Part shown: positions 1,087-57,719 of the stretch, piece after piece | How the letters are laid out: every line of letters starts with the position of its first letter | How positions within the stretch are numbered: position 1 is the stretch's first letter | Assembly (NCBI GenBank): GCA_963795085.1 | Contig: CAWCFX010000001.1 | Coordinates: 1,248,001 to 1,312,000 of the forward strand | Reading direction: 5' to 3' | Length of the DNA stretch: 64,000 nucleotides | Source: an uncultured Gemmatimonadales bacterium | GTDB lineage: Bacteria; Gemmatimonadota; Gemmatimonadetes; Gemmatimonadales; GWC2-71-9 | Translations under genes and position numbers: made by a program | Notes under the pieces: generated by a model | What the model was told of the DNA's origin: nothing | The model's input: the letters and a program-made list of their open reading frames with translations, nothing else | Databases searched by the model: none

Positions 1087-1665
1087 TCAGCCGGCGTACA
1101 GCACCCAGGCCCAACCGGCGCCGCTGAGGACCAGTCCCCCCACGAAAACCCGGTAGCACCAGTCCAGGTAGAAATACTGTCGGCGCAGGTAGATGGCGCC
1201 GTAGGCATACATCGCATCGGTCACCTGGTCGTGCATCAGGTGGGGCGTGGCCAGCAGCGTCCGCATCGCGTCCCGGTATTCCGCCGGGCTCAGGCTGGCG
1301 AAGTGGGTGAAAGTGAGCACGTTAAAGCCGGGGTCGCCGGGCCGGGGCGGATTGCGCCGGGGCGTGGGCGGTTTCATTGAGGCCACGGCGAAGAGCGCCG
1401 CGATGACCGATCCGGCGACCAGCAGCAGGGCGGGATAGCGCGCATCGCCGAGATAGGGCCGTCCCAGGCTGTAGGTGGAAATGGCCGCGCAGATGGTCAG
1501 CATCACCTGGGCCTTGGTGTCCGCGGCCTTGCTCAGGTCCAGTTGGGCGGACACCCCGACACGCAGGAAAGTGTCCGCCGAACGGACTGCCTTGCCGCCC
1601 GGTTTCGGCAGCGCCGACGCTGCCTCCGAGGCCGGCTCCTCGCGCCGCCTGTCTTTCTTTCCCAT
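1087..1665 (-). CDS. Pycsar-effector-like (PycTM/DUF5706-type) membrane protein
   Basis: 'LSKAADTKAQVMLT' followed by two TMs, then 'NVLTFTHFASLSPAEY', 'YLRRQYFYLDWCYRVF' and a C-terminal TM. ATG at 1665 has an upstream GAGGGA. Confidence 0.7.
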   Translation of the reverse strand: MGKKDRRREEPASEAASALPKPGGKAVRSADTFLRVGVSAQLDLSKAADTKAQVMLTICAAISTYSLGRPYLGDARYPALLLVAGSVIAALFAVASMKPPTPRRNPPRPGDPGFNVLTFTHFASLSPAEYRDAMRTLLATPHLMHDQVTDAMYAYGAIYLRRQYFYLDWCYRVFVGGLVLSGAGWAWVLYAG

Positions 1666-1681
1666 GCTGGGTCCCTCGCGG

Positions 1682-2065
1682 TTATTCGCTGGTCTGGGCA
1701 AACCTGAGGCGGTAGCCGCAGGGGTCCTCGACGCTGTACTCCCGGAGGCCCCACGGCTCATCGGTGATGGGGCGGGTGATCACGGCCCCTTTCCCGACGT
1801 GTTCGGCATGGATGGCATCGATGCCGGTGACCAGAATCATCACTTCCTGGCCCCGAACCCGGGTGGCCAGTTCGGAATTGGCCATGAAGTGGATATTGGC
1901 GCCGCCGCGCTGGATTCCGGCATCGGTGGCCGGGTCGCCCCAGAACCAGGTCACCTCGAACCCGAGGGTCTCGGTATAGAAACGGAGGGTGGCGGGCAGG
2001 TCGGCGCAGGCCAGCACGGGCACCGCCGCGGCGACCGTCGGCAGGGCGGAGGGAGTGAGGGTCAT
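1682..2065 (-). CDS. VOC/glyoxalase/bleomycin-resistance family protein
   Basis: 'PVLACADL...FYTETLGF' and 'DEPWGLREYSVEDPCGYRLRF' motifs. Confidence 0.85.
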   Translation of the reverse strand: MTLTPSALPTVAAAVPVLACADLPATLRFYTETLGFEVTWFWGDPATDAGIQRGGANIHFMANSELATRVRGQEVMILVTGIDAIHAEHVGKGAVITRPITDEPWGLREYSVEDPCGYRLRFAQTSE

Positions 2066-5507: not shown

Positions 5508-6080
5508 TCATGGCCTCGGTGGGGCTCCGGTCGCGCGTGCGGCGGTGTCTCGGTCCAGCATGGAGCGGAGCGGCGCCAGCCGCGGATCGGACGTGAAGCG
5601 GCGTCCGTAGTCCAGGTTGAACGCGTAATCGAAGTCCGGGGGGTTGGTCCCCTGGTTGTGCTGCATGATGGTCTCCAGCTTGTCCAGGCCCTTGGCGAGC
5701 CGCGCTTCCGCCGTCTCACACCCTTCATACTCATCATAGAGTGCCACGATCATTGCCTGTTGAGCCGGTGCCAGGGGCGTGACCAGCTCCACCAGGTCTT
5801 TGCGCTCGTCGGCGGCCTTGGCGCCCAGTGCTTCCTGCAGCGGTGCGGGAATATCGCCGCGCACCGCCTCTCCGAGGTCATGGACGACGAGCAACTGGAT
5901 GACCCGGTTGGTGTCCACGTCAGGAAACCGGTCCGCCAGCACCAGGGCCATCAGGCAAAGCCGCCAGCTGTGGGCTGCGACGCTTTCCGGCTGGCCGTCG
6001 GAGGTCCAGGCGCTCCGATGGGTCGCCTTGAGCCGCTCGGCGCGCCCCAGGAACTCGATGATGCCGGCCAGGTCATCCAT
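5508..6080 (-). CDS. HD domain phosphohydrolase (YfbR/HDDC2-like)
   Basis: 'LKATHR', 'ESVAAHSW', 'VHDLGE' and 'LDKLE'. Start overlaps the cupin stop. Confidence 0.85.
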   Translation of the reverse strand: MDDLAGIIEFLGRAERLKATHRSAWTSDGQPESVAAHSWRLCLMALVLADRFPDVDTNRVIQLLVVHDLGEAVRGDIPAPLQEALGAKAADERKDLVELVTPLAPAQQAMIVALYDEYEGCETAEARLAKGLDKLETIMQHNQGTNPPDFDYAFNLDYGRRFTSDPRLAPLRSMLDRDTAARATGAPPRP

Positions 6081-6510
6081 GAGGTTCCCCGGTGAACACG
6101 GTGTCTGCGGCCAGCTCCTCGAAGCAGAGGTTGACGGTCCGGCCCACCGTGCGGGTGCGATGCACGGTGCCGGCCGGGACGGTGGCGGCCTGCCAGGGGC
6201 CCAGGCGCAATTCAGTGCCATCCGCCAGGTCGATCAGGAGGGTGCCTTCGAGCACGAGGAACAATTCGTCGGACGATGGATGATGATGCCAGGGATAATC
6301 GCCGTCGAAGGCCGCGAAGCGCAGGCAGTGCCCGTTAACCCGGTTGAGCACCAGGTTCTGGTAGCCGGCCGGCGCGTCCCCGGCCAGCCGCGCCAGGTCC
6401 ATGACCTGGAGGGCGGGATAGCTGACCGGCGTGTCCCGGTAGGATTCCGGGGTGAAGTCGTGGTCCGGCAAGGTGGCGGCTCCGCTCGGGTTTGTCGTAA
6501 TATAGGCCAC
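6073..6510 (-). CDS. Cupin domain protein
   Basis: 'YPWHHHPSSDELFLVLEG' and 'VPAGTVH' cupin metal motifs. Confidence 0.85.
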   Translation of the reverse strand: MAYITTNPSGAATLPDHDFTPESYRDTPVSYPALQVMDLARLAGDAPAGYQNLVLNRVNGHCLRFAAFDGDYPWHHHPSSDELFLVLEGTLLIDLADGTELRLGPWQAATVPAGTVHRTRTVGRTVNLCFEELAADTVFTGEPHG

Positions 6511-6528
6511 CCCGTGCGGGAGCAGTCC

Positions 6529-7341
6529 TCACTGCCCGCAGTCCGTCTGGGGAATGTCGGAAACCTTGCCTTCGTCCTCGATCACGGCTGTCTGCCGCCA
6601 GAAGACGTCGTGCAGGGCCTGGGTCATGCCGCTGTCCACGTTGGCCGCCCGCACGGTGGCGAGGCGCTCGCCGAAGGTGGGAAGGGCGGGCACCGCGCCG
6701 CCTTCCCGTCCGGCCGGGGCAAACTCGCGGAGCCCCTTGCACTGGTAACAGACGCCCCGTTTGTTGACCAGCGAGCAGAGCCCTTCATAGGTGCTCTCCA
6801 TCTGGTGCCGTGCGCGCGACAGCGAGTGGCGAAAGGCTGATTCCGACAGGTCGAGAGCGGCCGCGGATTCCCGGTCGGTGAATCCCAGGACCTCCCGCAG
6901 GACCAGGGCGGCCTGCCCGTCCGGGTCCAGCGAGCGACCCACGCAGGTGAAGCAGTAGCCGATGTGTTCCTTGGCTTCATAATGGAAATCCGGGCGGCTC
7001 AGGGCCGTTCCGATTTCGCCGCCCAGCCGCTCGGAGCTGGCGCACGCGTTGGCGTGGGCGACCTGGGCGTGGGCCCGCCATCGTTTGCGCCGGCGGAGGT
7101 GGTCCACCGCGGCCCGGGCGCCAATGGCGCACAGCCAGGTGCCCACGCTCGAGTCCCCCCGGAACGACGCGCGGCCCTCCCAGGCCTTGAGCAGCGTCTC
7201 CTGCACGACGTCATCGGTATCCTCCGGGTGGCCAATCATCCGCCGCACCACCGCCCGGAGGCGGGGAATCTCGGGCGTGAAGATGGCGTCAAAGCCTTCC
7301 CGGGTGGCCCCGGCCACCGCCTCAATGTCTGATGCAGGCAT
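6529..7341 (-). CDS. ECF RNA polymerase sigma factor with Cys-rich C-terminal extension
   Basis: Region 2 'DDVVQETLLKAW...SSVGTWL', region 4 'LVLREVLGFTDRESAAAL...LSRAR' and tail 'CSLVNKRGVCYQC'. Confidence 0.85.
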   Translation of the reverse strand: MPASDIEAVAGATREGFDAIFTPEIPRLRAVVRRMIGHPEDTDDVVQETLLKAWEGRASFRGDSSVGTWLCAIGARAAVDHLRRRKRWRAHAQVAHANACASSERLGGEIGTALSRPDFHYEAKEHIGYCFTCVGRSLDPDGQAALVLREVLGFTDRESAAALDLSESAFRHSLSRARHQMESTYEGLCSLVNKRGVCYQCKGLREFAPAGREGGAVPALPTFGERLATVRAANVDSGMTQALHDVFWRQTAVIEDEGKVSDIPQTDCGQ

Positions 7342-8312
7342 CAGTCGGTTCCTTCCTGGGAGGAGGCGAAGAGAGCCTGGAGCCGGAGTTCGAAGCCTTC
7401 CTTCTCCCGCTCGGCGATCAGTTCGGCGGCCACCAGGTTGGCGCTGGTGGTCACCAGGAAATCAAACGCCTCGAGATTCTCAGGCGCATCGGTCCGGAGC
7501 ATGCTGACGACCGAAGCGATTTCGGGTTCCGTCAGCAACCGGGCGCGGTGGGTCAAGCCGGCCACCGCCGCTCGAAAGGCCCGGAGCCGGGCGATCTGCC
7601 AGCGGAGGATGGAACGATTCCGGCCGGCACCGGACTCAGGGGCGGCCGCCAGGTCGTGTCCGATGTATACGGGCGTATCATCCGGCAGCATGGCGTCCAG
7701 TCGCTCCAGGGTGCGGATCCACTCCCGGGTGTGCCCGGACTGGGCAAAGGGAGGAATCCCGAACATCACGAGGTCGCCAACCACGGCGGCCTGCTGCCGG
7801 CCGGACCGGACCAGGAAGACCGCGTCCTCATACGATTCGCCCGGTCCCGTCTCGATCAGGGTGAAGGTCACCCCATCCACCTCGATGGCCTGGCCGCTGC
7901 CCAGGACCATGTCAGGCCGGGGCGCACCGGGCGAAGTCATGCCGAAGCGGGCGTAGTTGGTCTCATCCCAGGTGGCCAGTTGCCGCGCGACGCCCGCGCT
8001 CGACATGACCCTCGCCCCGCCGCGATCCAGCCAGGCCAGCGCGCCGTAATGGTCCACGTGCGCATGGGTCAGTAGCACCGCGTGCACCGACTTTCCCAGG
8101 ACGGTGCGTATCGAATCAATCCGGGCGGCGTGCGCCGGCGAGAATCCCGGATCAATGATCACCAGGTGGCGCCGGGTTTCGACCACGATAGTAGTGGCGA
8201 AGGCGGCGTCCGAATGGGTCAGGACCCGCACCCGGAACGCGTCGTCGGGAGAAGCCTGGCTCGTCGGGGCGGACCCCGTGAGCAGGGTGAGCAGGGTCAG
8301 GGTGGTGATCAT
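7341..8312 (-). CDS. Secreted metallo-beta-lactamase-fold hydrolase
   Basis: N-terminal signal peptide, HxHxDH motif (THAHVDH), 'GDL' and 'IGH'. Confidence 0.8.
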   Translation of the reverse strand: MITTLTLLTLLTGSAPTSQASPDDAFRVRVLTHSDAAFATTIVVETRRHLVIIDPGFSPAHAARIDSIRTVLGKSVHAVLLTHAHVDHYGALAWLDRGGARVMSSAGVARQLATWDETNYARFGMTSPGAPRPDMVLGSGQAIEVDGVTFTLIETGPGESYEDAVFLVRSGRQQAAVVGDLVMFGIPPFAQSGHTREWIRTLERLDAMLPDDTPVYIGHDLAAAPESGAGRNRSILRWQIARLRAFRAAVAGLTHRARLLTEPEIASVVSMLRTDAPENLEAFDFLVTTSANLVAAELIAEREKEGFELRLQALFASSQEGTD

Positions 8313-8355
8313 GGCAGGGTCTCCGGTCCGAGGGTGGGTGTCGTCTTACCCTGGC

Positions 8356-8384
8356 TTAGACGACCGGCGCCGGAGAATCCGCCA
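8356..8384 (-). promoter_or_regulatory. Putative ECF-type promoter for the MBL-sigma operon
   Basis: Minus strand reads TGGCGGATT-N13-CGTCTAA about 43 nt upstream of the MBL start. CGTC is a common ECF -10 core. Confidence 0.3.
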
Positions 8385-8417
8385 ACTGCAACCGGCGCAA
8401 TCACCTGGGGCCGGCGG

Positions 8418-9095
8418 TCACCGGAACGTGGCGATGGCCGAGAGCGGTTTCCGCCGGATGTCGGGGACGCGGGCGTCCGCCGCCGGATAGCCAGCGACGA
8501 TCAGCATGACCGCCCGTTCGTTGGTTGGACGCTCCAGCACGTCGCCCAGGAAGCCCATCGGGCTCGGCGTGTGGGTCAGGGTGGCCAGGCCGGCATGGTG
8601 CAGGGCCGCGAGGAGAAACCCGCAGGCAATACCCACCGATTCCATGACGTAGTAGTTGGTGATGCGGGAACCATCCGCCGCGAGGCCGTACCGCTCGGCG
8701 AACACGGCAATCAGGTAGGGCGCCGTCTCCAGGTAGGGCTTGTGCTCGTCGGTTCCCAGTGGTGCCAGGGCGGCCAGCCAGTCCGCGGGCGCCGTGGCGT
8801 AAAACTCCGCCTCGGCGGTCTCCGCCGCGGCGCGAATCGCCCGTTTCATGGCCAGGTCCGCGACCGCGACAAAGTGCCATGGCTGCCGGTGGGCCCCGCT
8901 CGGCGCCGTGCCGGCGGCCTCGATGCAGGACTCGATGATGGCCCGTGCCACCGGCCGGTCGCTGAACTGTCGCACGGTGCGCCGGCGCTGGAGGTCTTCG
9001 GCAAACTCCCGGCTGCGCCGGAGCATTTCGTCCGGTGGGTATTCCCGGTAGGATCGGAGCGGCACGAAGGCGGTTTCCCTGGATGGCTCGTTCAT
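8418..9095 (-). CDS. Nitroreductase family, iodotyrosine-deiodinase (IYD)-like
   Basis: 'RRRTVRQFS', '[11 protein letters not shown]', lid 'EAEFY...[10 protein letters not shown]' and 'LTHTPSP'. Confidence 0.8.
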
Positions 9096-9312
9096 TCGTC
9101 TGTCCTTTTCGCGGCGGGGGCGCGCATCGGCCGGTGAATCCCTGATCCGGGTGAAGTAGGTCCGAGTACCGCTGCTACTACCGGCCCATCAGCGCCGGTG
9201 CGTTTCTGCAGGTTCAGCGCCCTAACCGTTGCGGGCGAGGGTGGCGGGAACGGGGCATGCGGCCGCGTCGGGAAGCGAGGTCCTCGGGACACGACGCCAC
9301 CTTTATCAGGAA

Positions 9313-11592
9313 TCAAAGCGAGGCCGGGGGCGCGCCCAGGCCGACGACCGTCACCGCAAATACCGGGCAGTGCGCGGCCTGCACCACCCGCTCGGTCACG
9401 CTGCCCACCTCGACGTCGATATTTTCCGGGGCCCCTCTCCCCCGGGTGGCCATCATGATCAGGTCGCATCCTTCCGACTCGGCGACCCGGGCAATGGTCC
9501 GGACCGCCCCGGAACCTTCGACCCGGGTTTCCGCGACGAAGCCGATGTTCCGGAGTGCCTCCGCGACCGAGTCGAGGTAGGTCTTGAGTCGCTGGGTCTC
9601 GCCCTCGGTCTCCGGCACCGTGAGCAGCACCAGGGTGCTGTGGAAGTGGCGCGCGAAGATCCGCGCCCAGGGCAGCACTTCTTCCGACTCCTCCGACCCG
9701 TCAAGGCAGACCAGCAGTTTCGCGAACGCGGTGTGCCGACTGGTCCAGGCGTCGGTCGGCCGGATGAGCAGGACCGGCAGCGCGGTCTGGCGCACCACCG
9801 CCGTCGCGATGTTCCGGCCCAGCAGGTGGTCCACCCGCGACCGGCCATGGGTGGCCATGACAATGATATCGGCGTTCCGCTCCATCCCGTGACGGCCGAT
9901 TTCCTCCGGGATGCGCCCTTGTCGGACTGCGGAGTGCACTTGGAGTCCTCCCTTCGCCAAGCCCGAAGAAACGCTCTCGAGGTAGGCCTCGATGGTGGGG
10001 TGCACCCGGGGCGCATCCCCCGCCTGCCCGGTGCCCGGCGGTCGCCGCACCGAGACCAGGTCAATGCTCCCGGTGACCGTCCGCGCCAGCAGTTCCGCCA
10101 CCGGCAGCGCATGCTCGGCCAGGGCCGAACCGTCCAGCGGGACGATGATGCGCTCGAGGCCGAAGTCGTTCTCCGGGAAATCGTAGCGCTGGAACGGAAG
10201 CAGGTACTGGCCGGAGAAGAACCGGCCCAGGTGGGATTCCAGGGGCTCGGGCGGGCCCAGCCGGCTGCGGAAGCGCCCAAAGACGAAGGCCAGCAGTGGA
10301 ATGAACAGGAGATAGGACCACGCGCCTTCGAAGAACCGCTCCTCGAAAATGATGATGGTCGCGGCCGTCGTCAGGAGAGCCGCGCAGACCGTGCCTGCCA
10401 GGGTCGCGGCGCCCCCGGGTGAGAAGGACCGGCGCAACCCGCGAAGGAGGCGTTTGGCGGCGGCCCACCCGGTCATGCTGAGCAGGATAAAGACGCCCGC
10501 CGCGTAGAGGGCGAGGTAGGTCTCCTCATGGGTTCCGAAGAACAGGAACGCGAGTGATACGATCCCGATCTCCACCCAGACCGGCTTGTCCGCTACGTCG
10601 AACCGGTTGCGGATCCCGAGGGATGCGGGGATATAATGCCGGTAGCGGAGCCCGAGGGCGAGGTTCTGAATGCCCTGCGCGCTCGCGGCGGCCGCGGAGG
10701 CGAGGACCAGGACGCCGATCAGGGTGCCCACCCAGGGCAGGGGAGCCGGGAGCAGCTGGTCCATCGTCTGGGTAAACACCGAGACGTGGAGATTGGACGG
10801 ATCGGCCAGTGCCAGGATGGCCGGCCCCACGACGAGCATGGTGAGGCAGGTCGTGCCCATGATGATGACCAGGCTGCCGAAGGCTTTCCGGCTCCGCTCG
10901 CCGCTGGTGCCGTCATAGGCGGCCACCAGGTTGGCGAAGATCTCGATCCCGGTCATCAGGGCGAGGATCCGGGCGAAGCCGCCCAGCGTGAAATGAAAGT
11001 ACTCCGGGGCGAAGGCCCGGAGGTCGAAGGACGGCAGGTGGAAGCCGCGCTGCCAGATGGTGGCCCCGATCATCGTCCAGAGCAGCAGCAGCACCGCGAA
11101 GGTTGCCGGTCCGAAGGCCCGCGCGGCGGTCCGGGGGCCCCGGTTCACCAGCCAGCCGATGGCCAGGCTGATGAGCACCGCGAGCAGGGTCCGGTACGGC
11201 AGCCCGATGACCGAGGTATTCAGCGCCGGGAGCCGGTCGGCCACGAACGTCACCAGGGCGGCGATGCTGACGAGAAAGGTCAGGGTGTACTCGACGAAGG
11301 TGATCCCCGCATTCACCTTGACCGCCCAGGGGCCGAACTCCTCTTCCGTCAGCCCGCTGCCGCCGCTCCCGTCCACTACCCACCGCATCACCAGGCGGTA
11401 CATCGCCGACACCATGATGACCGTAAAGACGACCAGCCATATGCTGGCGCCGAACGTCACCTCGGCGACGCCGGCCAGCACGATCAGCTTGAGGAAGGGC
11501 CCGAAGACGTAGAGGGGGGAGGTAGCGGGATCGCCGCCGCCGGCCAGCGCGCCCTGGAAAGAGTTCGACAGGCGGTGGGAAACGTGGGCCAT
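9313..11592 (-). CDS. KimA/KUP-like APC-fold transporter fused to two universal stress protein (USP) domains
   Basis: About 12 TMs with 'GDPATSPLY', 'MTGIEIFAN' and 'YAAGVF', then two USP units ('IIVPLDGS...MATHGRS...PVLLIR' and 'LVCLDGS...MATRGR...GSVTERVV...PVF'). Confidence 0.75.
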   Translation of the reverse strand: MAHVSHRLSNSFQGALAGGGDPATSPLYVFGPFLKLIVLAGVAEVTFGASIWLVVFTVIMVSAMYRLVMRWVVDGSGGSGLTEEEFGPWAVKVNAGITFVEYTLTFLVSIAALVTFVADRLPALNTSVIGLPYRTLLAVLISLAIGWLVNRGPRTAARAFGPATFAVLLLLWTMIGATIWQRGFHLPSFDLRAFAPEYFHFTLGGFARILALMTGIEIFANLVAAYDGTSGERSRKAFGSLVIIMGTTCLTMLVVGPAILALADPSNLHVSVFTQTMDQLLPAPLPWVGTLIGVLVLASAAAASAQGIQNLALGLRYRHYIPASLGIRNRFDVADKPVWVEIGIVSLAFLFFGTHEETYLALYAAGVFILLSMTGWAAAKRLLRGLRRSFSPGGAATLAGTVCAALLTTAATIIIFEERFFEGAWSYLLFIPLLAFVFGRFRSRLGPPEPLESHLGRFFSGQYLLPFQRYDFPENDFGLERIIVPLDGSALAEHALPVAELLARTVTGSIDLVSVRRPPGTGQAGDAPRVHPTIEAYLESVSSGLAKGGLQVHSAVRQGRIPEEIGRHGMERNADIIVMATHGRSRVDHLLGRNIATAVVRQTALPVLLIRPTDAWTSRHTAFAKLLVCLDGSEESEEVLPWARIFARHFHSTLVLLTVPETEGETQRLKTYLDSVAEALRNIGFVAETRVEGSGAVRTIARVAESEGCDLIMMATRGRGAPENIDVEVGSVTERVVQAAHCPVFAVTVVGLGAPPASL

Positions 11593-11749
11593 GGCGGGCA
11601 GGATCCGGGTGACGCGCGGGAGGCGGTGCGCGGTGGCACTGCCGGTGCTTACCCCGGTTCACTCCGGGGGCGGGCGGATAATGGGGCCCTTGGCCGCGGA
11701 TCGGAAGCCCCGGCGCCCACCCATGCGGCGGGGCGGCGGGGTGGCCCGC

Positions 11750-11950
11750 TCACTCCCTCCGCTCTTCGCTGTGCAGCACCAGGGTGGCAAACACCGCGAT
11801 GCCACCCAGCACGAGGCCAAGGCCCAGGATCCAGGTGAGCAGGGCAGGGAAGACCATAACGAGCACCCCGCCCAGCATCAGCAGCAGGGCGCCCATCACC
11901 ACGACGACCGGATCACGGTTCCGGATAACGGTATTGATCATGTGGATCAT
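11750..11950 (-). CDS. Small two-TM membrane protein of the asp23 locus
   Basis: 66 aa with two hydrophobic helices and a charged tail. RBS AAAGGA lies directly after the amaP-like stop. Confidence 0.65.
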   Translation of the reverse strand: MIHMINTVIRNRDPVVVVMGALLLMLGGVLVMVFPALLTWILGLGLVLGGIAVFATLVLHSEERRE

Positions 11951-11963
11951 GAGGATTCCTTTC

Positions 11964-12542
11964 TCATCGAAGCAGCCGGGGCACGGTGCCGCTGGCATGG
12001 GCCTGGACGTGGACCGACACGGCTTCCACGGGCCGCCCCAGGAAACCGTTCATCGCGTCGCGGACCCGGTTTTCCACCTGGCGCATGACTTCCGGTGCGT
12101 TCACGTCCAGCTGGGTCACGACCGCGCACGATACCCGGAGCCCGCTGCTCCGGTCACGCACGCTGGACTGGACGTCCAGCGTGCCGGGAATTTCCCGGAT
12201 GGTCCGCGTCAGCAGTTCGCGGATGGCGGAGATGGCCACCGTCAGCCGCCCCGCCGAACCCGATCGGAGCACGATGGACGGCGGCTGCCGCGCCAGGGTG
12301 GCGGCCTCCAGCCAGAGCAGCACCGGGGCTCCCAGGGCGACCACGAGGGCCGCACCCACCAGCACCGCCCGCCACCCGGTGGACAGCAGCGGCACCTGCC
12401 ACAGGCCGTCCTGGACCCAGGTCCCGAGCCAGGTGACGTACCCCGGGGAGACGAGCCCGGCGCTCACCACGAGCAGGACTACCGCCCCGAGGAAGAGGGC
12501 CAGCAGCACCACGAACGCGAGGACACGGTTGAAGGCGTTCAT
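11964..12542 (-). CDS. amaP: Alkaline shock response membrane anchor protein, AmaP-like
   Basis: 'MNAFNRVL' with two N-terminal TMs and an Asp23-like soluble domain ('GRLTVAISAIRELL...V..V.V'). Adjacent to an Asp23 gene; RBS AAAGGAG. Confidence 0.7.
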   Translation of the reverse strand: MNAFNRVLAFVVLLALFLGAVVLLVVSAGLVSPGYVTWLGTWVQDGLWQVPLLSTGWRAVLVGAALVVALGAPVLLWLEAATLARQPPSIVLRSGSAGRLTVAISAIRELLTRTIREIPGTLDVQSSVRDRSSGLRVSCAVVTQLDVNAPEVMRQVENRVRDAMNGFLGRPVEAVSVHVQAHASGTVPRLLR

Positions 12543-12572
12543 GGGGCTCCTTTCCGGCCATCGCGGGCCATG

Positions 12573-13028
12573 CTATTCCACCCGCGAGGGGCGTTGCCGC
12601 GCGGCCTCGTCCTCGGGAAAGAAGAGATCGCTCACCTCGATGTTGACTTCCTTCACCACCAGACCGGTCATGCCCTGGACCCGCTCGATGATATTGGAGC
12701 GCACGGCGTCGCCCAGCTGGGCGATGTTCACCCCGTAATCCACTTCCAACGCGAGGTCCACGGCGGTTTCCCGCTTGCCGACCTCGACTGAGACGCCGCG
12801 TCCGCGGGTATCGCTGCCCATGACCCGCTGGGCCAGTCCCGCCACCCGGGCACCCACCCCGCCGGCCACCATGCCATGGACACCGGGGATTTCCCGGGCC
12901 GCGATGGCGGCGATCTTGGCCACCACCGTGTCCGTAATGGTGGTCGCGCCCTTGTCACTGACCAGCCCGGGCGACTGCAGCCGGGTCTTGTTCTCCGGCC
13001 GTGTCATCGTATTCGTTGAGTCAACCAT
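12573..13028 (-). CDS. Asp23/Gls24 family envelope stress response protein
   Basis: 'GATTITDTVVAKIAAIAAREIPGV', 'GVSVEVG...AVDLALEVDYG' and 'MTGLVVKEVNIEVSD'. RBS AAAGGAG. Confidence 0.9.
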   Translation of the reverse strand: MVDSTNTMTRPENKTRLQSPGLVSDKGATTITDTVVAKIAAIAAREIPGVHGMVAGGVGARVAGLAQRVMGSDTRGRGVSVEVGKRETAVDLALEVDYGVNIAQLGDAVRSNIIERVQGMTGLVVKEVNIEVSDLFFPEDEAARQRPSRVE

Positions 13029-13067
13029 GATTTTCTGGTCTCCTTTCAAGAGATATAGGTCCTGCCG

Positions 13068-15788
13068 TTACCAGCCCCACTGGGCGCCGAGCAGCAGGCG
13101 ATTCAGGTCGAAGAGGTCAATGCCCTGATGCTCCAGGAAAATCCGGGGCTGACCCATCCACTCGGTGCCGGACCAGGTGCCGAAATCGGCACTGAAGCCA
13201 TACGCGAAGTTGAGCACGCCTTCGGTGCCGCCGGCGCCGCCGGCCGTCTCCGAGAACGTGATGATGCCGAGTCCCAGCCGGGTCACCGGCACCAGCGTGA
13301 CACTTCTGCTCAGGGCCAGTGAGGGCAGCCGGTATTCCACGTTGAGTGCCGCCATGAGGGAGGTGGTGCCGCCCCCAAAGCCGAAGGCCAGTTCCGGAAC
13401 GACATGCACCGGGACCTTGCGGCTGGCCTGGCCGAGGTCCACGCGGCCCCCCAGGATCCACTGTTTCGGACGCTCCAGGCCGAACCCGGTATACGCCGAG
13501 GGCGACTGGATAGTCCGCGCGACAGAGGAACGTCGCGGCACCTCCACCACGGTTACCCGGGTGGAATCCGTGCCCTCCTGTCCGGGCTGGACCACCACCA
13601 CCTGGGGGTCAGCCGGCGAAATGATCTGCTGCGGGGTCCGGTTGTCGAGCTCCGCCATCCGGCGGCGGACCTCCAACTCGACCCGGTCGTCGATCATGGC
13701 CTCCAGCCGCCGTTCATCGAGCGCGGGCTGGGCCGGCGCCGGCGTCACCGCGGGGGTGGCCTGGCGCTGCTGCTGGAGCAGGAACTGCTGCTGCTGCAGG
13801 TCTCGCTGCGCCTGCCGCTCCAGCATCGTGTCGATCCGGGCCTGCAACCGGCCGCTGAGCGCCGCGAACTGGGCTTCGGTCAGGGCGGCCGAGCCGGTGG
13901 TATCCCGGCGCGGGGCAGGAGCGCGCTCCAGCTCGGAACGGATCAGGCGCTGGATGCCGGCGGAATCGATCCCGGGCCGGCGCTGGGCCAGCGTATCAAT
14001 GCGGGCCAGCAGCGCCCGGTACATGAGTGCGCTGGAATCGGGGCCGGCTGCCGGGGCCGCCTGCACCCTTGCCTGGACCCGCAGGGAATCGAGTTCCCGG
14101 CGCTGCTGCACCAGGCTGTCCATCCGGGCCATGAGGGCCTGGAGCAGGCTGGAATCAGGGTTGGCACGCTGGGCGCCGGCCAATGCGGCTCTCAGTGAGT
14201 CCGACCGCAGGCGCAGTACGACCGAGTCGGTCGGGGACTCCACGGCCGGCCCCTTGGACGCCGCAAGCATTTCGTCACGGAGAATGCTGCGCAGTTCCTG
14301 CCGCAACGTTTCCCGGTTGATGGGCGCCGGCTCCCGCTCCCGCACCATGCCCGCGGCTATACCTCCTTCGGGCCTCGGAGTGCCGTACCGGATATAGATC
14401 TCGCCCTCCGAGGGGATCGGGATAGTGGCCGACTTGGCGGAGACGAACCCGCTGGCCAGGGTGTCCCGGATGAGGTCGCGCGTTTCCAGTCGGGGCGCCG
14501 CTTTGGCGGCCACGGCCGGACGCGGCTGGGCAGTGTCCGCTGCCACGGGCGCCGGTGCCTCGGCGACGGGCCGGACGGTCGGTGTCGGCGCCGACCGGCT
14601 GTTGCCGATGGCGTAACTGACGCCGGCGCTCAACATGAGGTTGTGGGTAATGTCGTCGGTGCTGCTCACCTGTCCGGCATTCATCTGGCCGAGGATGTAG
14701 TCGCGGGCGGTGAGGTTCAGCCGCAGCTGCTCGGTGAGCCGGAGGCCGACGCCGCCCCCGATGCTCAGGAAGGTCTCGTCGGCCGGCCAGACGCCGTTCG
14801 CGTCACGGTAGGCGCCCAGGAAATTGAGGCGGCCCGCCCCGGCCACGAGGAACGGCGCGAGGCCATTGCCCGTGTTCAGGTTGAACTGGGCCTCGCCGCC
14901 ATACCCGGCGATCGGGTCGGTGTCGCCGAACCCTGAGGTGGCGCCTCTCCAATAGAACCCCCGCACCCCGACGAAGGGGCCGAAGTCCACGCCGGCCCGG
15001 AGGCCGACCAGCGCCTGGTCCGAAAAGGCGTCGTTGGAGAACTTGAGCTCGCCCGCATAGGGCTCCACCCGGACCGCAGCGAACGACCAGTCGGAAGACC
15101 GCGCCGCCGAGGCGGAGTAGTTTCTCCCCCCGAGCGCGTAGCCCAGTCCCACGCTAATCGCGAGGTTGTCGCGCTGATCCCGTGCCTCGGCATCGGTAGG
15201 ATACGTTCCGCTGAGCCCGCCGGGCGCGAGCAGGTATCGGTCCATCCGGAACCGAACGTCCTGCACCATCAGTTCCGCTCGGAGCCGGTCCGTCACGTCC
15301 ATGCGGATACCGCCGCCCAGCGCCAGGGTGACCTGGCTGGTCCGGGCTCCCTCGTCCGGATCAAAGCGGAGGACCCCACCGCCTACCTGGAGGAAGGGAA
15401 CCAGCCGGCTGTGGCCAAACGCGTAGTCCAGGGTGGCCCCGTACCGCAGCAGGTCCACGCCCTGGTTTCCGACCTGGTTTCCGCTGGTGTCCTGCAACCC
15501 GGTGCGGTTCAATTCGGTCTCGATCCCCGAGCGGGCAAACCCGAAGCCCCGAAGCGAGAGCCCGCTCCCGAAGTCGAGCGCGACGCCGATTCCCGGCAGG
15601 GTGGCATCGGCCATGCCGAGGTCATCGTGCCAGAGGATGTGCTGTACGGATGGCGTCAGGGTGGAGCGCACGCCCTGGGCGGCGAGGGGCGACGCCAGCA
15701 CAACGCTGGCGGCGACCGCCAGCCACGCTGGCATTCGGCGGGCACTCCTCCGGTGTCTGCGACGGAAAACAGAACTGGACATAGGCAC
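13068..15788 (-). CDS. Large outer-membrane protein: two N-terminal beta-barrels, coiled-coil/low-complexity middle, C-terminal beta-barrel
   Basis: Signal peptide ending LAA-Q and amphipathic beta-strand motifs ('PFLQVGGG', 'PFLVAGAG', 'LSAGVSYAIG'). Helical Q/R/E-rich middle and terminal 'LLLGAQWGW'. The start may be 15782 or 15734. Confidence 0.7.
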   Translation of the reverse strand: MPMSSSVFRRRHRRSARRMPAWLAVAASVVLASPLAAQGVRSTLTPSVQHILWHDDLGMADATLPGIGVALDFGSGLSLRGFGFARSGIETELNRTGLQDTSGNQVGNQGVDLLRYGATLDYAFGHSRLVPFLQVGGGVLRFDPDEGARTSQVTLALGGGIRMDVTDRLRAELMVQDVRFRMDRYLLAPGGLSGTYPTDAEARDQRDNLAISVGLGYALGGRNYSASAARSSDWSFAAVRVEPYAGELKFSNDAFSDQALVGLRAGVDFGPFVGVRGFYWRGATSGFGDTDPIAGYGGEAQFNLNTGNGLAPFLVAGAGRLNFLGAYRDANGVWPADETFLSIGGGVGLRLTEQLRLNLTARDYILGQMNAGQVSSTDDITHNLMLSAGVSYAIGNSRSAPTPTVRPVAEAPAPVAADTAQPRPAVAAKAAPRLETRDLIRDTLASGFVSAKSATIPIPSEGEIYIRYGTPRPEGGIAAGMVREREPAPINRETLRQELRSILRDEMLAASKGPAVESPTDSVVLRLRSDSLRAALAGAQRANPDSSLLQALMARMDSLVQQRRELDSLRVQARVQAAPAAGPDSSALMYRALLARIDTLAQRRPGIDSAGIQRLIRSELERAPAPRRDTTGSAALTEAQFAALSGRLQARIDTMLERQAQRDLQQQQFLLQQQRQATPAVTPAPAQPALDERRLEAMIDDRVELEVRRRMAELDNRTPQQIISPADPQVVVVQPGQEGTDSTRVTVVEVPRRSSVARTIQSPSAYTGFGLERPKQWILGGRVDLGQASRKVPVHVVPELAFGFGGGTTSLMAALNVEYRLPSLALSRSVTLVPVTRLGLGIITFSETAGGAGGTEGVLNFAYGFSADFGTWSGTEWMGQPRIFLEHQGIDLFDLNRLLLGAQWGW

Positions 15789-16102
15789 TCCCTGTTAGAG
15801 GGAGAGCGCAGGCTGTCTCGCGGAACCGTTCGGTCAGACTCCCGGTATGAGACGTGACGGGAAAGCCCAGAGGCAAGAAAACCCAGAACGGATCTGACAG
15901 CACAACGCTCTCGCGTGATGAGCGAGACATTGGCTATCACCGCACCAGGTTTCAGGGCGCTGTATTGCGCCGGCTGGATCACTCTGCCGGGCATTGGAGC
16001 CCGGCGATGCCCCGAAGGGGCTGGAGATCACGGAGGGTGTACCGGCCGGCGCAAGGAAGTTCGCGTTGCGGCCTTGACAGGGAGTATAATCGGGTGGGGC
16101 GA

Positions 16103-16447
16103 TTACCGCAAGTGCTTGTTGCTCAAAGAGTTATCGTTCACGGTATCTTCACGGTTCCGCCGCCGCCTCGCCACCGCCATGGCGGCTAGCGTTCCCCCCA
16201 TGGCCAGCCCGGTCAACAGCAGCGGAATGAGCGGCGAAGCCCTCCGCTGGAAGAACGCGGCCATGCCCTCCATCAGCGACAGCCCACTGAACGCGATCAG
16301 GGCCAGGACGCTGCCCGAAACGGCGAACATGAAGGCCTCGAAGACCGTGACCATGCCCCGGTGGGCCGGGCCGGTCAACCGCAGGGTAGCCAGGCCGGCC
16401 AGTCCTCCGGCGATGCCGGCGATCCAGGCGGCGGCGGTGAAGCTCAT
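16103..16447 (-). CDS. Small hypothetical membrane protein (3 TMs)
   Basis: ATGA overlap with the carbonic anhydrase stop. Three hydrophobic segments and a basic C-terminus. Confidence 0.5.
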   Translation of the reverse strand: MSFTAAAWIAGIAGGLAGLATLRLTGPAHRGMVTVFEAFMFAVSGSVLALIAFSGLSLMEGMAAFFQRRASPLIPLLLTGLAMGGTLAAMAVARRRRNREDTVNDNSLSNKHLR

Positions 16448-17061
16448 AACCCGTCGAAAAAATCGACGCGGCCTGTTTCCAGCGAGTACTCGGCGCCCGC
16501 CACGAGGAGTCCCTGGTCGGCGATCAGCTGTTCCAGCAGGCGGGAGCCATGGCGCAGGTGGTCCACCGAGGCGCGGATGTTGGCGCGGACCGCCTGGTTG
16601 ACCAGCGCCGGGACATCGTGGCGCAGGTCGGTGGCGAGGAGGCCCTCCACCGAAGGCCGCACCCGGTCCACGATGGAGCGGATGTTCCGGGAGTGCTCGC
16701 CGCCCGGGTTGCGGAGGTCGTCGAGCGTCGCCTGGATGGCTCCGCACTGGGAATGCCCCAGCACCACCACCAGCCGGGTGCCGAAGCGGTCGGCGGCGAA
16801 TTCCACGCTGCCGACCTGGGACGGGGCCACGATATTTCCCGCGACCCGGATGACGAAGAGGTCGCCCAGCCCCTGGTCAAAGACGATCTCGGCGGGCACC
16901 CGTGAGTCGGAGCAGCCCAGGATGATGGCGAAGGGTTCCTGGGCCGCCGCCAGCTCCGCGAGGCGGGTCCGGCTGACAAAGGTGTCGGACCCGCGGATGT
17001 TGGCGGCGAAACGGGCGTTGCCCTCCTGCAGCCGGGCCAGGGCTTCCCGGGCCGGGATCAC
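16444..17061 (-). CDS. Beta-class carbonic anhydrase
   Basis: 'LGCSDSRV', 'GDLFVIRVAGN' and 'LGHSQCGA' zinc motifs. Confidence 0.95.
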   Translation of the reverse strand: MIPAREALARLQEGNARFAANIRGSDTFVSRTRLAELAAAQEPFAIILGCSDSRVPAEIVFDQGLGDLFVIRVAGNIVAPSQVGSVEFAADRFGTRLVVVLGHSQCGAIQATLDDLRNPGGEHSRNIRSIVDRVRPSVEGLLATDLRHDVPALVNQAVRANIRASVDHLRHGSRLLEQLIADQGLLVAGAEYSLETGRVDFFDGL

Positions 17062-17071
17062 GCCGCGATCC

Positions 17072-17548
17072 TCACGGCGCGGGGGACGGTGCGTCGTTCC
17101 ACGTGTCCACCACGTTGCGCCAGGTGCCGCCCGCGTCTTTCCGCCAGACGGTCACCGCCTTGCCGTGCATGGTCAAGGGCTGGCCCGCCGAATCGTTCAC
17201 CGTCACGACATTCCGCTCCAGCATGTAGGCGAGGTCCCCGCTTTCCGCGACATGGACGCTCTCCGGCTCCCACCGGATCTGGAAGCCGGGCACCTGCTGG
17301 GAACCCTCCACGTACTCCCGGATGGCCGCCCGCCCGCGGAGCGCGGGGCCCCCGGGGGGGAGCAATACGGCGTCCTCCGCCCAGTAGGTCATGATGCTGT
17401 CCAGGTCGCCGGTCGCCGCGAGGGCGGACCAGTCCCGGCTGCGCTGCATCAGGAGGGCGCCCTCGGCGTCCCGGTCCACCGTCGGGCCGGCGCAGGATAT
17501 GACCAGCAGTGACAATAACAGGCAGGCTCTTCCTGCGAGGCGGTTCAT
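17072..17548 (-). CDS. NTF2-like/DUF4440 (YybH-like) lipoprotein
   Basis: Lipobox-like VISC, 'YWAEDAVLLPPG', 'SGDLAY' and 'GKAVTVWRK...WRNVVDTWN'. Confidence 0.8.
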   Translation of the reverse strand: MNRLAGRACLLLSLLVISCAGPTVDRDAEGALLMQRSRDWSALAATGDLDSIMTYWAEDAVLLPPGGPALRGRAAIREYVEGSQQVPGFQIRWEPESVHVAESGDLAYMLERNVVTVNDSAGQPLTMHGKAVTVWRKDAGGTWRNVVDTWNDAPSPAP

Positions 17549-17684
17549 GAGCAGCTCCCGACAACGGATAACGCGGCGCGGGCCCGGATGCCCCGGGCCC
17601 GGCGGCGATGGGATCGGACGGAGGTGCAATTATAACCGCGGCCCGAGGATCGAGAAACCGCGTCGGCGGAGCCCGTGGAGCCGC

Positions 17685-18680
17685 TCAGTGCAGGCGCGGC
17701 CCGACCCCCGCGCCCAGGATAAGTCCAAATTGGTGCTGGCCGCTGCTGCTCTGGAACCAGAACGTCCGGCTGAGCAGCGTGACCGAAATACGCTCGCTCG
17801 CAAAGATCTCGCTTCCGGCGCCGACATGGACACCGGCGCGGAGCCCCGCGTCGGGCCCGTCCAGGAACCCCGGCAGGAAGGGTCCCAGCGCGATGTACGG
17901 CCGGCCCCACCGGGGCGTCGCCGCCAGTTCCGCCGCCGGGATCATGAGATAGGCGGTGGTCGCCTCGGGCGAGGTTCCCGGGCCGGCTGTGGCCGCCTCC
18001 AGCCCCACGGCGGCAATATCCACCGAGAGGGAAGAGTGGGCGCTCTTATCCCGCCGGAGCCGGACGCCCGCTACTGCGGAGGAGGCGACGTAGGGGCCGT
18101 TGCCCAGCCGGCTGAGGCTGCCGACGAACGGGGCCACGACGCCTGGCTTGCCTTCCGATGGCCGGAGGGTGCCCATCCCGACGTGCATGCCGGCGCGATA
18201 CTCCACGTTGCGGATCTGGTCGTCACTGCGCAGCCTGGCCTCCACTGATGCCGATACCCGGTCGGAGAGCCCGGCGCGAAGTCCGAACCCGGCGATGAAA
18301 CCGAACCCCCATTCCGTCGTGGACGGCGCCAGCAGGCCGGGCGCCGTGGTATAGCGGAACGCCGCGATGCCGGTCTGGACATAAGGCGCGATTCCGGAGG
18401 CACCCACCGGGTACCAGTTGCTCTCGAGGGCCAGGGCAAGGGCACCCTCCCCGTTGCCGAACCGCGCGCCCGGCCAGCGGGTCGCGGTCAGCGCGATTTC
18501 GTTTTCGCTCTGGGAGAGATATCCCAGCTGCAGGCCGTAGCCCGAGGACGAACGGTCTCCCGAAGCCTCGGACTGGAAGACGCTGCCGACCACTCCCAGC
18601 CGCAGCGTCCGCTGCGCTTCCGCGGCGGTGCCGGGCACCGCGATCAGGACGCTCAGGATACAGGTCAAAGGCCGACGCAT
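17685..18680 (-). CDS. Outer-membrane protein with two tandem small beta-barrels
   Basis: Signal peptide (AEA-Q) and two repeats of the 'PY.x.G...G...GAG' strand pattern ('IAPYVQTGI', 'GRPYIALG'). Start ATG 18680. Confidence 0.6.
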   Translation of the reverse strand: MRRPLTCILSVLIAVPGTAAEAQRTLRLGVVGSVFQSEASGDRSSSGYGLQLGYLSQSENEIALTATRWPGARFGNGEGALALALESNWYPVGASGIAPYVQTGIAAFRYTTAPGLLAPSTTEWGFGFIAGFGLRAGLSDRVSASVEARLRSDDQIRNVEYRAGMHVGMGTLRPSEGKPGVVAPFVGSLSRLGNGPYVASSAVAGVRLRRDKSAHSSLSVDIAAVGLEAATAGPGTSPEATTAYLMIPAAELAATPRWGRPYIALGPFLPGFLDGPDAGLRAGVHVGAGSEIFASERISVTLLSRTFWFQSSSGQHQFGLILGAGVGPRLH

Positions 18681-18778
18681 GGCCACGCTCCGGGATGCAG
18701 GTGAAGTCAGGTCGTTGGGGACGTGACATTCACTAGCAGGGTATGTGCCGTGGACGGGAGCGAAAAACCTGCGGGTAT

Positions 18779-18794
18779 GGTGATCTGGATCACA
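18779..18794. promoter_or_regulatory. CRP/FNR-family-like operator
   Basis: GGTGATCTGGATCACA differs at 2 of 16 positions from the symmetric CRP core TGTGATCTAGATCACA. It is intergenic, about 100 bp upstream of the OMP start. Confidence 0.45.
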
Positions 18795-18915
18795 CTGGGA
18801 TGTGATGCGCGCGGCACCCGGGGCGTGCGTGTGGCAGGCCGCGTACATCACTGGAACGAAATGTTTCGACCGTGCCCGGCGACCAGAATGGCGGTTTCCG
18901 GTCCGCGCCGTCTCC

Positions 18916-20238
18916 TCAATGATCCAGTGCGGCGAGCAGCACCGCGTAGCGTTCTTCGACGGCCCGGACATCTTCCTGCTCGGGAAGTCCCGCCCGGGCG
19001 CCGCGGAGAATGATGTCGGCCTGCCGGCGGAGTGCGGCCCGGTCTTCTTCCCGGTGGGTGGCGGCGGCGACCGGGACCATGGTTTCCATCAGCCGGTTGG
19101 TGACGGCGGCGCTTTCCCTGGCATACTGGCGGATCTGGGTCCAGGCGGCGTCGAGGATCTGGGGGAAGGTGACCGAGGGCGCGATGACCCGGAGCAGGCC
19201 ATCGTCGTCCACCCGGTACGGGGAAGGCGCCCTGCGCCGCGCCAGTCGGGTAAGCCCTGACCCCAGGCGGTCCACGCAGGAAACGGCGGTGAATGGGTCA
19301 TTGATGCCGGGCGAAAGCGCCCGCGCGGCGATTTCCACCAACTGGTGGACGGCAAATTCCAGGTCCTGCTTGGGGGTGCGCTGTCCGCCCAGCACGAAGG
19401 CCGCGTTCACCCGCTCGGCCACCCGGGGCGTGACCCGGTCTTCCGGCCAGACCCGCACCAGGGGGCTGCCGCGGATGACGTACTGACCGGGCCGCCGCTC
19501 GACGCGGAGGACCAGGTTGTGCTCCCGGGCCAGCCCCATAAGGCTGCTCGCGTCGATCAACTGGAGATAGCCGTCCGCGGCCGAGGGGATGCTGAGAGCC
19601 TCCCGCGCGAAGGCGGGGGGCTCCGCGGGTGCCTCGCCGGGACCAACCTCGTCCGAGGCCTCTCCGATATGCTCGGGGAACAGCCGGTCGATGCCCTCGT
19701 GCAGGTCGGTGCTGACCCTCCCGATGATCGCATCCGCCTGGATGGAAACCGCTACATGATGGATGAAATAGATGAGCACCCACAGGCTGGCCAGGGCGAA
19801 AACGACCCCGAGCGTGACGGCCAGCTGGGGCACGAAGGGGGTCTCTTCCGCGCGACGAATGGTCCGAATCACGAGCAGGCAATAGAGGAAGGTGGCAACA
19901 AAGGTTCCCAGCACGACCTGGTTGGTCGTGTCGCCCATGAAGTTCCGGAGCAGCCGCGGACCGAATTGGGAAGACGCCAGGGTCAGCGCCACCAGCGTCA
20001 GCGAAAACACGACCCCGGCGATGGTGATCATGGAACCGGCGATCGTCTGCAGGACGGCGCTGGCGCCGGCCGGCCCCCCCGTGTAGACCCACTTGAGCCC
20101 GTCCAGCCATTCCTGGCTCACCGAGTGGTCGAGCGACACCATCCCGAAGGCCAGCCCAGCGGCGGCCAGCGCCATGAGGGTCGGCAGGAACCAGAAACTG
20201 GTGCGGATATGGTCCCAGTACTTGAGCAGTCGGGTCAT
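18916..20238 (-). CDS. DUF2254 family membrane protein
   Basis: 'SFWFLP', 'LASSQFGPRLLRNF', 'LIYFIHH' and 'VEIAARALSPGINDPFTA'. Confidence 0.85.
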   Translation of the reverse strand: MTRLLKYWDHIRTSFWFLPTLMALAAAGLAFGMVSLDHSVSQEWLDGLKWVYTGGPAGASAVLQTIAGSMITIAGVVFSLTLVALTLASSQFGPRLLRNFMGDTTNQVVLGTFVATFLYCLLVIRTIRRAEETPFVPQLAVTLGVVFALASLWVLIYFIHHVAVSIQADAIIGRVSTDLHEGIDRLFPEHIGEASDEVGPGEAPAEPPAFAREALSIPSAADGYLQLIDASSLMGLAREHNLVLRVERRPGQYVIRGSPLVRVWPEDRVTPRVAERVNAAFVLGGQRTPKQDLEFAVHQLVEIAARALSPGINDPFTAVSCVDRLGSGLTRLARRRAPSPYRVDDDGLLRVIAPSVTFPQILDAAWTQIRQYARESAAVTNRLMETMVPVAAATHREEDRAALRRQADIILRGARAGLPEQEDVRAVEERYAVLLAALDH

Positions 20239-34079: not shown

Positions 34080-34081
34080 CG

Positions 34082-36958: not shown

Positions 36959-36988
36959 CCTGAAGAATTCTTTCCCAGTGGAGGGGCA

Positions 36989-56019: not shown

Positions 56020-56060
56020 TGCGAAACGCTGAATTCGAACACCCCAACGGGGATACCACT

Positions 56061-57635: not shown

Positions 57636-57664
57636 GCCGGGAGTACCACGGGATTATCCACCCT

Positions 57665-57704: not shown

Positions 57705-57719
57705 GCGGAGTCGAATCGC

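Follow-up and report, generated by a model that had tools for sequence, protein, structure and literature searches.

Asp23, AmaP and a small membrane protein encoded together in a diderm bacterium, in a probable operon with an outer-membrane protein gene that is rarely but repeatedly found beside them

A four-gene unit on the minus strand of a 64-kb window (the whole stretch of DNA analysed here, from an uncultured Gemmatimonadales bacterium) encodes, in the order of transcription, an outer-membrane protein (OMP), Asp23, AmaP and a small membrane protein of 66 aa. The last three genes form a full Asp23-AmaP-small protein module, here in a diderm bacterium, and members of the OMP family are found with such a module in an operon-like arrangement rarely, but more than once. 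Our preferred reading, which we hold tentatively, is that the region is an envelope-stress operon that couples the expression of a structural OMP to that of a canonical Asp23-AmaP module of the inner membrane.

According to this reading, Asp23 would be a soluble protein that the Asp23-like C-terminal domain of AmaP keeps on the cytoplasmic side of the inner membrane, and the small protein would accompany the two; this inner-membrane role is suggested by family membership and by what is known from Staphylococcus. The OMP would be a structural envelope protein, possibly a spacer or tether of the OmpA kind between the outer membrane and the cell wall. The four genes would be carried on a single transcript that starts upstream of the OMP gene, so that the response would cover both membranes, and envelope stress would lead to a joint adjustment of outer-membrane architecture and the inner-membrane Asp23 system. 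The link between OMP and Asp23 would then be one of co-expression rather than a physical bridge.

The unit is composed of the following genes:
13068..15788, minus strand, OMP gene, 906 aa when read from the GTG at 15788
12573..13028, minus strand, Asp23 gene, 151 aa, from ATG
11964..12542, minus strand, AmaP gene, 192 aa
11750..11950, minus strand, small membrane protein gene, 66 aa with two predicted helices

Read directly on the sequence, the gaps between these genes measure 39 nt (13029-13067, OMP to asp23), 30 nt (12543-12572, asp23 to amaP) and 13 nt (11951-11963, amaP to the small gene), and an AAAGGA-type site precedes the starts of asp23, amaP and the small gene (GAAAGGAG, GAAAGGAG or GAAAGGAA). 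The tight same-strand spacing and the AAAGGA-type ribosome-binding sites reported in the first-pass annotation of this DNA are therefore correct, and its naming of OMP, Asp23 and AmaP is borne out by the PF13505, PF03780 and NF033218 scores given below. The G+C content of the window is 64-72% throughout, and that at third codon positions (GC3) is 0.83-0.90 in the open reading frames (ORFs) of the unit, as in real genes; the 66-aa ORF is too short for listing. The OMP has an alternative start, an ATG at 15782 with AGGGAG upstream (904 aa), which is probably better than the GTG at 15788, and its database representative P0001, whose numbering we use for OMP residues, starts at 15734 (888 aa). All three choices retain a basic-then-hydrophobic, signal-peptide-like N-terminus.

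Because the gaps are only 13-39 bp long and contain no terminator-like sites, the four genes are likely co-transcribed from the region upstream of the OMP gene, which is likely the promoter region of the unit:
15789..16102, minus strand, non-coding region of about 314 bp between the stop of a 114-aa membrane ORF and the OMP start

A sigma-70 consensus scan found no site in 15789..16102, and the consensus scan of 9000-17200 found no terminator-like hairpin in the three internal gaps. The four terminator-like sites that it did find, against 3.5 expected (chance level), all lie outside the gaps, and for sigma-70 sites and terminators together the scan of this interval was at chance level overall. 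No Rfam family was detected anywhere in the 64 kb, and the 161 nt that follow the small gene fold no better than shuffled sequences (z -0.83).

The Asp23 protein matches PF03780 with 91.8 bits (cut-off 28) over profile positions 2-107 of 108. No 19-residue window reaches a Kyte-Doolittle value of 1.6, which means that there is no membrane segment; the protein is soluble and cytoplasmic, with neither a signal peptide nor a membrane helix. We found 416 homologues, the best at 63-69% identity; the taxa named, for three of the 416, are Nitrospirota, Thermogemmatispora and Dehalococcoidia, and the homologue P0064, named as Nitrospirota, is 61% identical. A comparison with PDB sequences gave nothing significant (best E 0.3).

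AmaP is assigned by the NCBIfam equivalog NF033218 (63.4 bits, cut-off 55, residues 1-179), and its residues 128-180 give a weak match to PF03780 (24.2 bits). Its AlphaFold 2 (AF2) model, built from 50 homologues, has a predicted local distance difference test score (pLDDT) of 93.5, with helices at 3-27, 37-52 and 55-83 and a beta-beta-alpha-beta-beta-alpha-beta domain at 89-182. The predicted architecture is a first transmembrane helix at about 3-27, a periplasmic loop and helix at about 28-54, a second transmembrane helix at about 55-83 and a cytoplasmic Asp23-like domain at 89-182, and hydropathy agrees on two membrane helices. The basic N-terminus (MNAFNR) points to a likely N-in topology, so that the Asp23-like domain would be cytoplasmic and some 30 residues would face the periplasm. 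The protein thus has the features expected of AmaP: N-terminal helices, a C-terminal Asp23-like domain and a gene adjoining asp23. Its homologues form 387 representative clusters, and some relatives give weak DUF6286 matches; six longer homologues (262-386 aa), considered as Rosetta-stone fusions, carry no extra Pfam domain. The modelled domain 89-182 also superposes on the cytoplasmic domain of cation-diffusion facilitators (the MamM C-terminal domain; target-normalised TM-score 0.7-0.8, root-mean-square deviation 2.1-3.0, about 82 residues); this ferredoxin-like dimerisation fold is a common one.

The 66-aa protein, annotated at first pass as having two transmembrane helices, shows by hydropathy one long hydrophobic stretch that is compatible with two helices, flanked by charged ends (RNRD... 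and ...EERRE). It matches no Pfam or NCBIfam family above cut-off, even at E values up to 5, and in particular not DUF2273; an Atlas search returned nothing of at least 0.9 (scores at most 0.88). It resembles DUF2273-type proteins in size and position only.

The presence of this module in an organism with an outer membrane, as proposed at first pass, holds. At 53002-57635 the window has genes for a plug-domain TonB-dependent receptor and for the lipoprotein SusD, from which we infer a diderm organism, and the relatives of the OMP are almost all titled Gemmatimonadota, which supports this status. The Asp23 family has been called exclusive to Gram-positive bacteria in one source (PMC6954212), a view that is contradicted by the window module, by two further loci described below (L026 and L027) and by the Nitrospirota-named P0064.

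In Staphylococcus aureus, the asp23 operon has the order amaP, small DUF2273 membrane-protein gene, asp23. Like the window unit, it is a tight same-strand unit encoding a soluble Asp23, a two-helix AmaP and a small two-helix membrane protein. The window differs in its gene order (asp23-amaP-small gene), in its diderm host, in the OMP gene that comes first, and in a small protein that lacks DUF2273 or any other Pfam match. This staphylococcal operon is reportedly the subject of a 2014 study by Muller et al. In S. aureus, AmaP anchors Asp23 to the inner face of the membrane, and cells that lose either protein mount the cell-wall stress response (PMC6954212); Asp23 oligomers or filaments and AmaP-dependent membrane localisation are described as known for S. 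aureus only (PMC6954212). Published accounts place Asp23-AmaP in cell-envelope homeostasis and osmotic regulation, and regard the molecular function of the Asp23 family as unresolved (PMC6954212; 10.1101/2024.03.27.586946).

Two other monoderm arrangements are informative. The seven-gene amaP operon of Streptococcus agalactiae is repressed by BusR and c-di-AMP, and its AmaP/Asp23 complex is co-regulated with osmolyte transport (10.1101/2024.03.27.586946). It also combines AmaP with Asp23-domain and small membrane proteins in a proposed membrane complex for osmotic and envelope homeostasis, and it lies near transport and osmotic genes, which may be compared with the Usp-domain protein, MscS-like channel and NhaA of the window. 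Unlike the window unit, this operon encodes GlsB, CsbD and several paralogues of Asp23 but nothing for the outer membrane. Beside the window unit, no regulator resembling BusR was seen. In Actinobacteria, Asp23 clusters are linked to extracytoplasmic function (ECF) sigma factors of groups ECF286 and ECF292 (10.1101/2019.12.11.873521). Such clusters, for example a Streptomyces plasmid locus (L065), run from Asp23 (43-49% identical to the window Asp23) through a small hypothetical protein to a membrane-anchored Asp23-like protein (DUF6286-Asp23), and so resemble the window unit. However, their small gene precedes the anchored Asp23-like gene, whereas that of the window follows amaP; they have an adjacent ECF sigma factor, whereas the nearest ECF-type gene of the window is about 4.4 kb off; and their hosts are monoderm and without the OMP, whereas the window host is diderm. 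Asp23 matches 102 plasmid records, and the 40 of these that were listed are all from Actinomycetota or Bacillota; AmaP has no plasmid match by tblastn, and the window region has no DNA match among plasmids. We found no publication that joins Asp23 to an OMP or to Gemmatimonadota, in a literature search that was thin on subscription journals and did not cover supplements, in line with the first-pass annotation, which knew of no described system with this composition; one paper in the results mentions both subjects, once each.

The OMP belongs to the OMP_b-brl family PF13505 (43.5 bits, cut-off 28.7, in two stretches) and gives 50.9 bits with TIGR04565, under its cut-off of 60. The Pfam score, the signal peptide and the C-terminal aromatic residue (the protein ends ...QWGW) are those of a PF13505 barrel, and hydropathy gives an N-terminal signal as the only hydrophobic segment. 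Barrel proteins inserted by the barrel assembly machinery typically end in an aromatic residue. The AF2 model (mean pLDDT 72.3), together with the family alignment, divides the protein as follows:
15135..15671, minus strand, barrel 1, P0001 22-200, eight strands by DSSP of the AF2 model (block pLDDT mostly 80-95)
14607..15077, minus strand, barrel 2, P0001 220-376, eight strands in the AF2 model, best PF13505 stretch
14382..14420, minus strand, linker motif P-x4-G-E-x-Y-x-R-Y-G, P0001 439-451, in the disordered linker 379-471
13644..14315, minus strand, helical A/R/L/Q-rich region, P0001 474-697, seven predicted helices in the AF2 model
13077..13505, minus strand, barrel 3, P0001 744-886, eight strands in the AF2 model, ending ...LGAQWGW

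A second disordered segment is modelled at P0001 698-741. The long helical middle noted at first pass thus reappears in the model, at 474-697. The third barrel is visible in the AF2 model only. That there would be three separate 8-stranded barrels, rather than one larger barrel, is suggested by the strand counts and by the two separate PF13505 stretches. Foldseek searches with the model returned only generic outer-membrane barrels at low TM-score, and the family profile gave no match among PDB sequences at E values up to 0.01.

A word-indexed protein search found 37 homologues of 513-888 aa, 25 of which make up the family alignment. The aligned members have in common a signal peptide, two conserved barrel domains, the linker motif, a variable helical stretch and a C-terminal domain. 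Barrel 2 holds the family motif YGGEAQFNL, used in our genome scan, and the C-terminal motif NRL..G..W is conserved. In the linker motif, which is modelled at low confidence and for which we did not find a known counterpart, P439, G444, E445, R449 and G451 are invariant in all 25, across several phyla. The helical region varies greatly in length and sequence, and the window OMP, the longest member of the family, owes its surplus length to this part. The family is lineage-specific, confined to Gemmatimonadota and neighbouring candidate phyla. The window holds a second barrel protein (17685..18971), which shows no detectable paralogy to the OMP (best E 0.13).

Since an 8-stranded barrel has its ends on the periplasmic side, the linker of about 360 residues would lie in the periplasm and be fixed to the outer membrane at either end. 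Three of the 37 relatives (P0021, P0030, P0031) end in an OmpA peptidoglycan-binding domain; in the two that are aligned, P0021 and P0031, it replaces barrel 3, and the C-terminal half would therefore be periplasmic. This is one likeness to OmpA-type tethers. These and the tethers of the OmpM/SlpA type also combine an outer-membrane barrel with a periplasmic extension (PMC10628300; 10.1101/2021.05.31.446380; PMC9388160; PMC11648852). The window OMP differs from them in its three predicted 8-stranded barrels, in lacking an OmpA or SLH domain and in a linker anchored at both ends.

How far does the pairing of this OMP with Asp23 extend? We scanned the OMP family alignment against species-representative genomes and obtained 64 loci, mostly from Gemmatimonadota, with four from Eisenbacteria, three from Latescibacterota, one each from Krumholzibacteriia and Zixiibacteriota, and two with no phylum in the title. 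At each locus, all six-frame ORFs of at least 40 aa in flanks of up to 6 kb on each side were searched by phmmer with the window Asp23, AmaP, small protein, Usp-domain protein, carbonic anhydrase and SnoaL protein, and the Asp23 search was repeated at E values up to 10 with a hidden Markov model (HMM) trained on 120 homologues of Asp23. At least 600 bp of flank was present downstream in 57 of the 64 loci, upstream in 54 and on both sides in 49. Asp23 was found in two loci only, L026 and L027, with phmmer and the HMM in agreement, and phmmer found AmaP and the small protein in the same two only. Since all six-frame ORFs were used, the negative results for Asp23 and AmaP do not depend on a gene caller.

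Both positive loci come from metagenome-assembled genomes (MAGs) of Gemmatimonadaceae and have the order Asp23-OMP-AmaP-small protein, so that the OMP gene lies inside the module. In L027, the genes are all on one strand:
L027, Asp23 gene, ending at 5913
L027, OMP gene, 5968..8199
L027, AmaP gene, 8217..8795
L027, small protein gene, 8819..9010

The gaps are at most 54, 17 and 23 nt. The Asp23 proteins of L026 and L027 score 102.5 and 101.6 bits, and AmaP reaches 74.5 bits with NF033218 in L027 and 48.5 bits, under the cut-off of 55, in L026. Identity to the window proteins is 55-56% for Asp23, 30-32% for AmaP, 33-38% for the small protein and 33% for the OMP. The small protein is kept after amaP in both loci, with 18 invariant columns and 29-38% identity, and seven loop residues (G29, P33, G40, W42, Q44, G46 and L47) are conserved in the three OMP-linked AmaPs. 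L026 and L027 have in common the four-gene block and one gene several kb upstream; their downstream DNA is unrelated and their OMPs are 49% identical, so the block has outlasted considerable divergence between the two loci.

Maximum-likelihood analysis of 65 OMPs (quick search, SH-aLRT support only) puts the window OMP in a starred clade of 22 rows, and L026 and L027 as a starred pair within another starred clade of 24. A tree uniting the three OMPs, a group defined from the locus search before the tree was built, is rejected (delta log-likelihood 185, p-AU 4e-53). Because the OMPs of L026 and L027 belong to a different clade, the association arose, or was kept, in two configurations: either module and OMP family came together on two occasions, each with its own gene order, or the association is old and many separate losses followed.

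Pairing in two configurations argues against pure chance, and this bears on the possibility that the genes are fortuitous neighbours, with a stand-alone housekeeping OMP gene beside an independently regulated asp23 operon in the window and a second rearrangement accident in L026/L027. The flanking DNA inspected amounts to about 546 kb and contains only two Asp23 genes, both immediately adjacent to the OMP and on the same strand, whereas about 0.1 modules would be expected by chance (assuming about one module per genome of 4-5 Mb). An accident also fits poorly with the interleaved order kept in L026 and L027 despite the divergence of their OMPs and downstream DNA, and with gaps of 13-54 nt that leave scant space for separate regulation.

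Several observations nevertheless weigh against the co-expression reading, and some of them speak for chance proximity. First, 62 of the 64 OMP loci lack Asp23, AmaP or the small protein in their flanks, including all 21 other members of the window OMP clade, 18 of which have at least 600 bp of downstream sequence. A lack of conservation of the OMP-asp23 adjacency in related genomes had been named at first pass as an outcome that would refute the proposal, and this is largely what the loci show. Second, no gene is conserved beside the OMP family: the most widespread cluster of flanking genes occurs in 7 of the 64 loci by a rough clustering (approximate, since our GC3-based gene caller is crude and missed the OMP itself in 12 of the 64 loci); most family members therefore work without Asp23. 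The variable neighbourhoods and the existence of paralogues (L035 and L046 from one MAG; L039 and L040) are what a stand-alone OMP gene would show, and the other window neighbours, namely the Usp protein, carbonic anhydrase and SnoaL, recur in none of the 64 loci. Third, no upstream motif is common to the window OMP gene and the asp23 genes of L026/L027 (10- to 14-mers with 1-3 mismatches; shuffles 0.1-0.3), and a promoter may lie within the 3' end of the OMP gene. Fourth, the L026 OMP frame is broken near nt 6300 (two overlapping frames at about nt 6000-6430), by either a frameshift or an assembly error. Fifth, L026 and L027 count as one event and the window was picked for its adjacency, so the statistical case amounts to essentially one independent replicate. 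Finally, a tether role for the OMP is suggested by the modelled architecture only, and Pfam detects in the window protein no OmpA domain (PF00691), the mark of an OmpA-like tether. Taken as a whole, the independent evidence that the pairing is not due to chance is suggestive, not strong, and we consider fortuitous proximity rather unlikely. Among the paralogues, L039 and L040 are two identical OMP copies in opposite orientation on one 42.9-kb contig with the same flanking clusters, and may represent a large inverted duplication or an assembly artefact.

The first-pass annotation had gone further than co-expression and proposed a trans-envelope scaffold, in which the OMP linker would bind the AmaP loop and/or the small protein and so couple the outer membrane or cell wall to Asp23. 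The recurrence of the pairing in L026 and L027 speaks for this proposal, in particular because the module is joined to the OMP family in two gene orders and in two OMP clades, and because the OMP gene is interleaved between asp23 and amaP in the latter two loci. The modelled linker helices, about 170 of 224 residues, would in principle be long enough to span many nanometres, and the AmaP loop residues listed above are conserved among the three OMP-linked AmaPs. Yet no part of the OMP family varies more, in length as in sequence, than the helical region, which is not what one would expect of a specific docking surface. The linker motif, invariant in 25 of 25 aligned members, is not attributable to Asp23, because 24 of these come from the protein search and have no known genomic context. 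On the inner-membrane side, AmaP would offer the periplasm no more than some 30 residues and the small protein next to nothing, and the conserved co-occurrence expected of a dedicated trans-envelope complex is seen in 2 of 64 OMP loci only. A complex prediction of the OMP linker (P0001 377-745) with AmaP gave no answer (score 0.00 in two runs) and counts for neither side. The scaffold proposal is thus supported only in part, adjacency by itself not being enough to carry it, yet it is not refuted: the pairing recurs, while the adjacency is mostly unconserved and AmaP offers only its short loop. A physical complex appears improbable to us.

Our preferred reading, co-expression of the Asp23-AmaP module with a structural OMP, also draws on the surroundings of the unit, in which we count as stress or ion-homeostasis neighbours the Usp-domain protein, carbonic anhydrase, MscS-like channel, ECF-type sigma factor and NhaA. 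The genes closest to the unit and the sigma factor are:
9313..11592, minus strand, Usp-domain membrane protein, 759 aa, polytopic, PF00582 133.8 bits in two C-terminal stretches
16103..16447, minus strand, 114-aa membrane ORF, upstream of the OMP region
6529-7341, minus strand, ECF-type sigma factor, 270 aa with a long C-terminal extension, about 4.4 kb from the unit

The gene for the Usp-domain protein, a downstream neighbour that we do not count as part of the unit, begins 157 bp after the small gene. Its product opens with some 470 residues of polytopic membrane sequence that match nothing in Pfam or NCBIfam and ends in tandem Usp domains; a transporter of an unclassified type, fitted with domains that sense stress, is one possibility. 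The ATG of the 114-aa membrane ORF, which matches no family above cut-off, overlaps the stop of the carbonic anhydrase gene (ATGA).

These genes belong to a one-strand run of about 14 kb (6073..20238, minus strand), many members of which have a stress flavour. It comprises a DUF2254 protein, the second, weak barrel protein, SnoaL, carbonic anhydrase, the four-gene unit and the Usp protein, as well as a nitroreductase, a metallo-beta-lactamase-fold protein, the ECF-type sigma factor and a cupin. These wider surroundings do not turn up again beside the OMP in other genomes.

Elsewhere in the window, five consecutive genes of the alpha-amylase family (28121..40315, plus strand) encode, judging from their domains, GlgX-, GlgB-, TreZ- and TreY-like proteins and a TreS-maltokinase fusion, a glycogen/trehalose cluster that fits the osmotic-stress flavour of the region. 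At 53002..62887 (plus strand), a SusC-like TonB receptor with a CarboxypepD_reg domain and SusD are followed by two amylases and a GH2 enzyme, which make up a Bacteroidota-style starch-utilisation locus in a Gemmatimonadota-type genome. At 1087..2065 (minus strand), a protein of 224 aa gives a match to PycTM, the membrane domain of Pycsar effectors (PF18967, 55.7 bits), and its gene overlaps or abuts a 127-aa glyoxalase/bleomycin-binding-like ORF (NF033156, 50 bits, cut-off 140).

A bolder view is that the Asp23-AmaP system was twice wired to the three-barrel OMP of Gemmatimonadota, whose linker would transmit strain in the outer membrane or cell wall to the AmaP-Asp23 assembly, so that in a two-membrane cell the system would work across the envelope. 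We regard this as a long shot; if true, the Asp23 family would gain its first partner in the outer membrane and a first handle on its mechanism. The OMP deserves attention in its own right, because three predicted barrels with a doubly anchored, putatively periplasmic linker would constitute an undescribed envelope architecture that merits a structural look. If the link between the OMP and the module is functional, it would mean that the Asp23 system senses or protects envelope mechanics rather than a cytoplasmic process, and the one-membrane and two-membrane versions of the system would offer a natural comparison.

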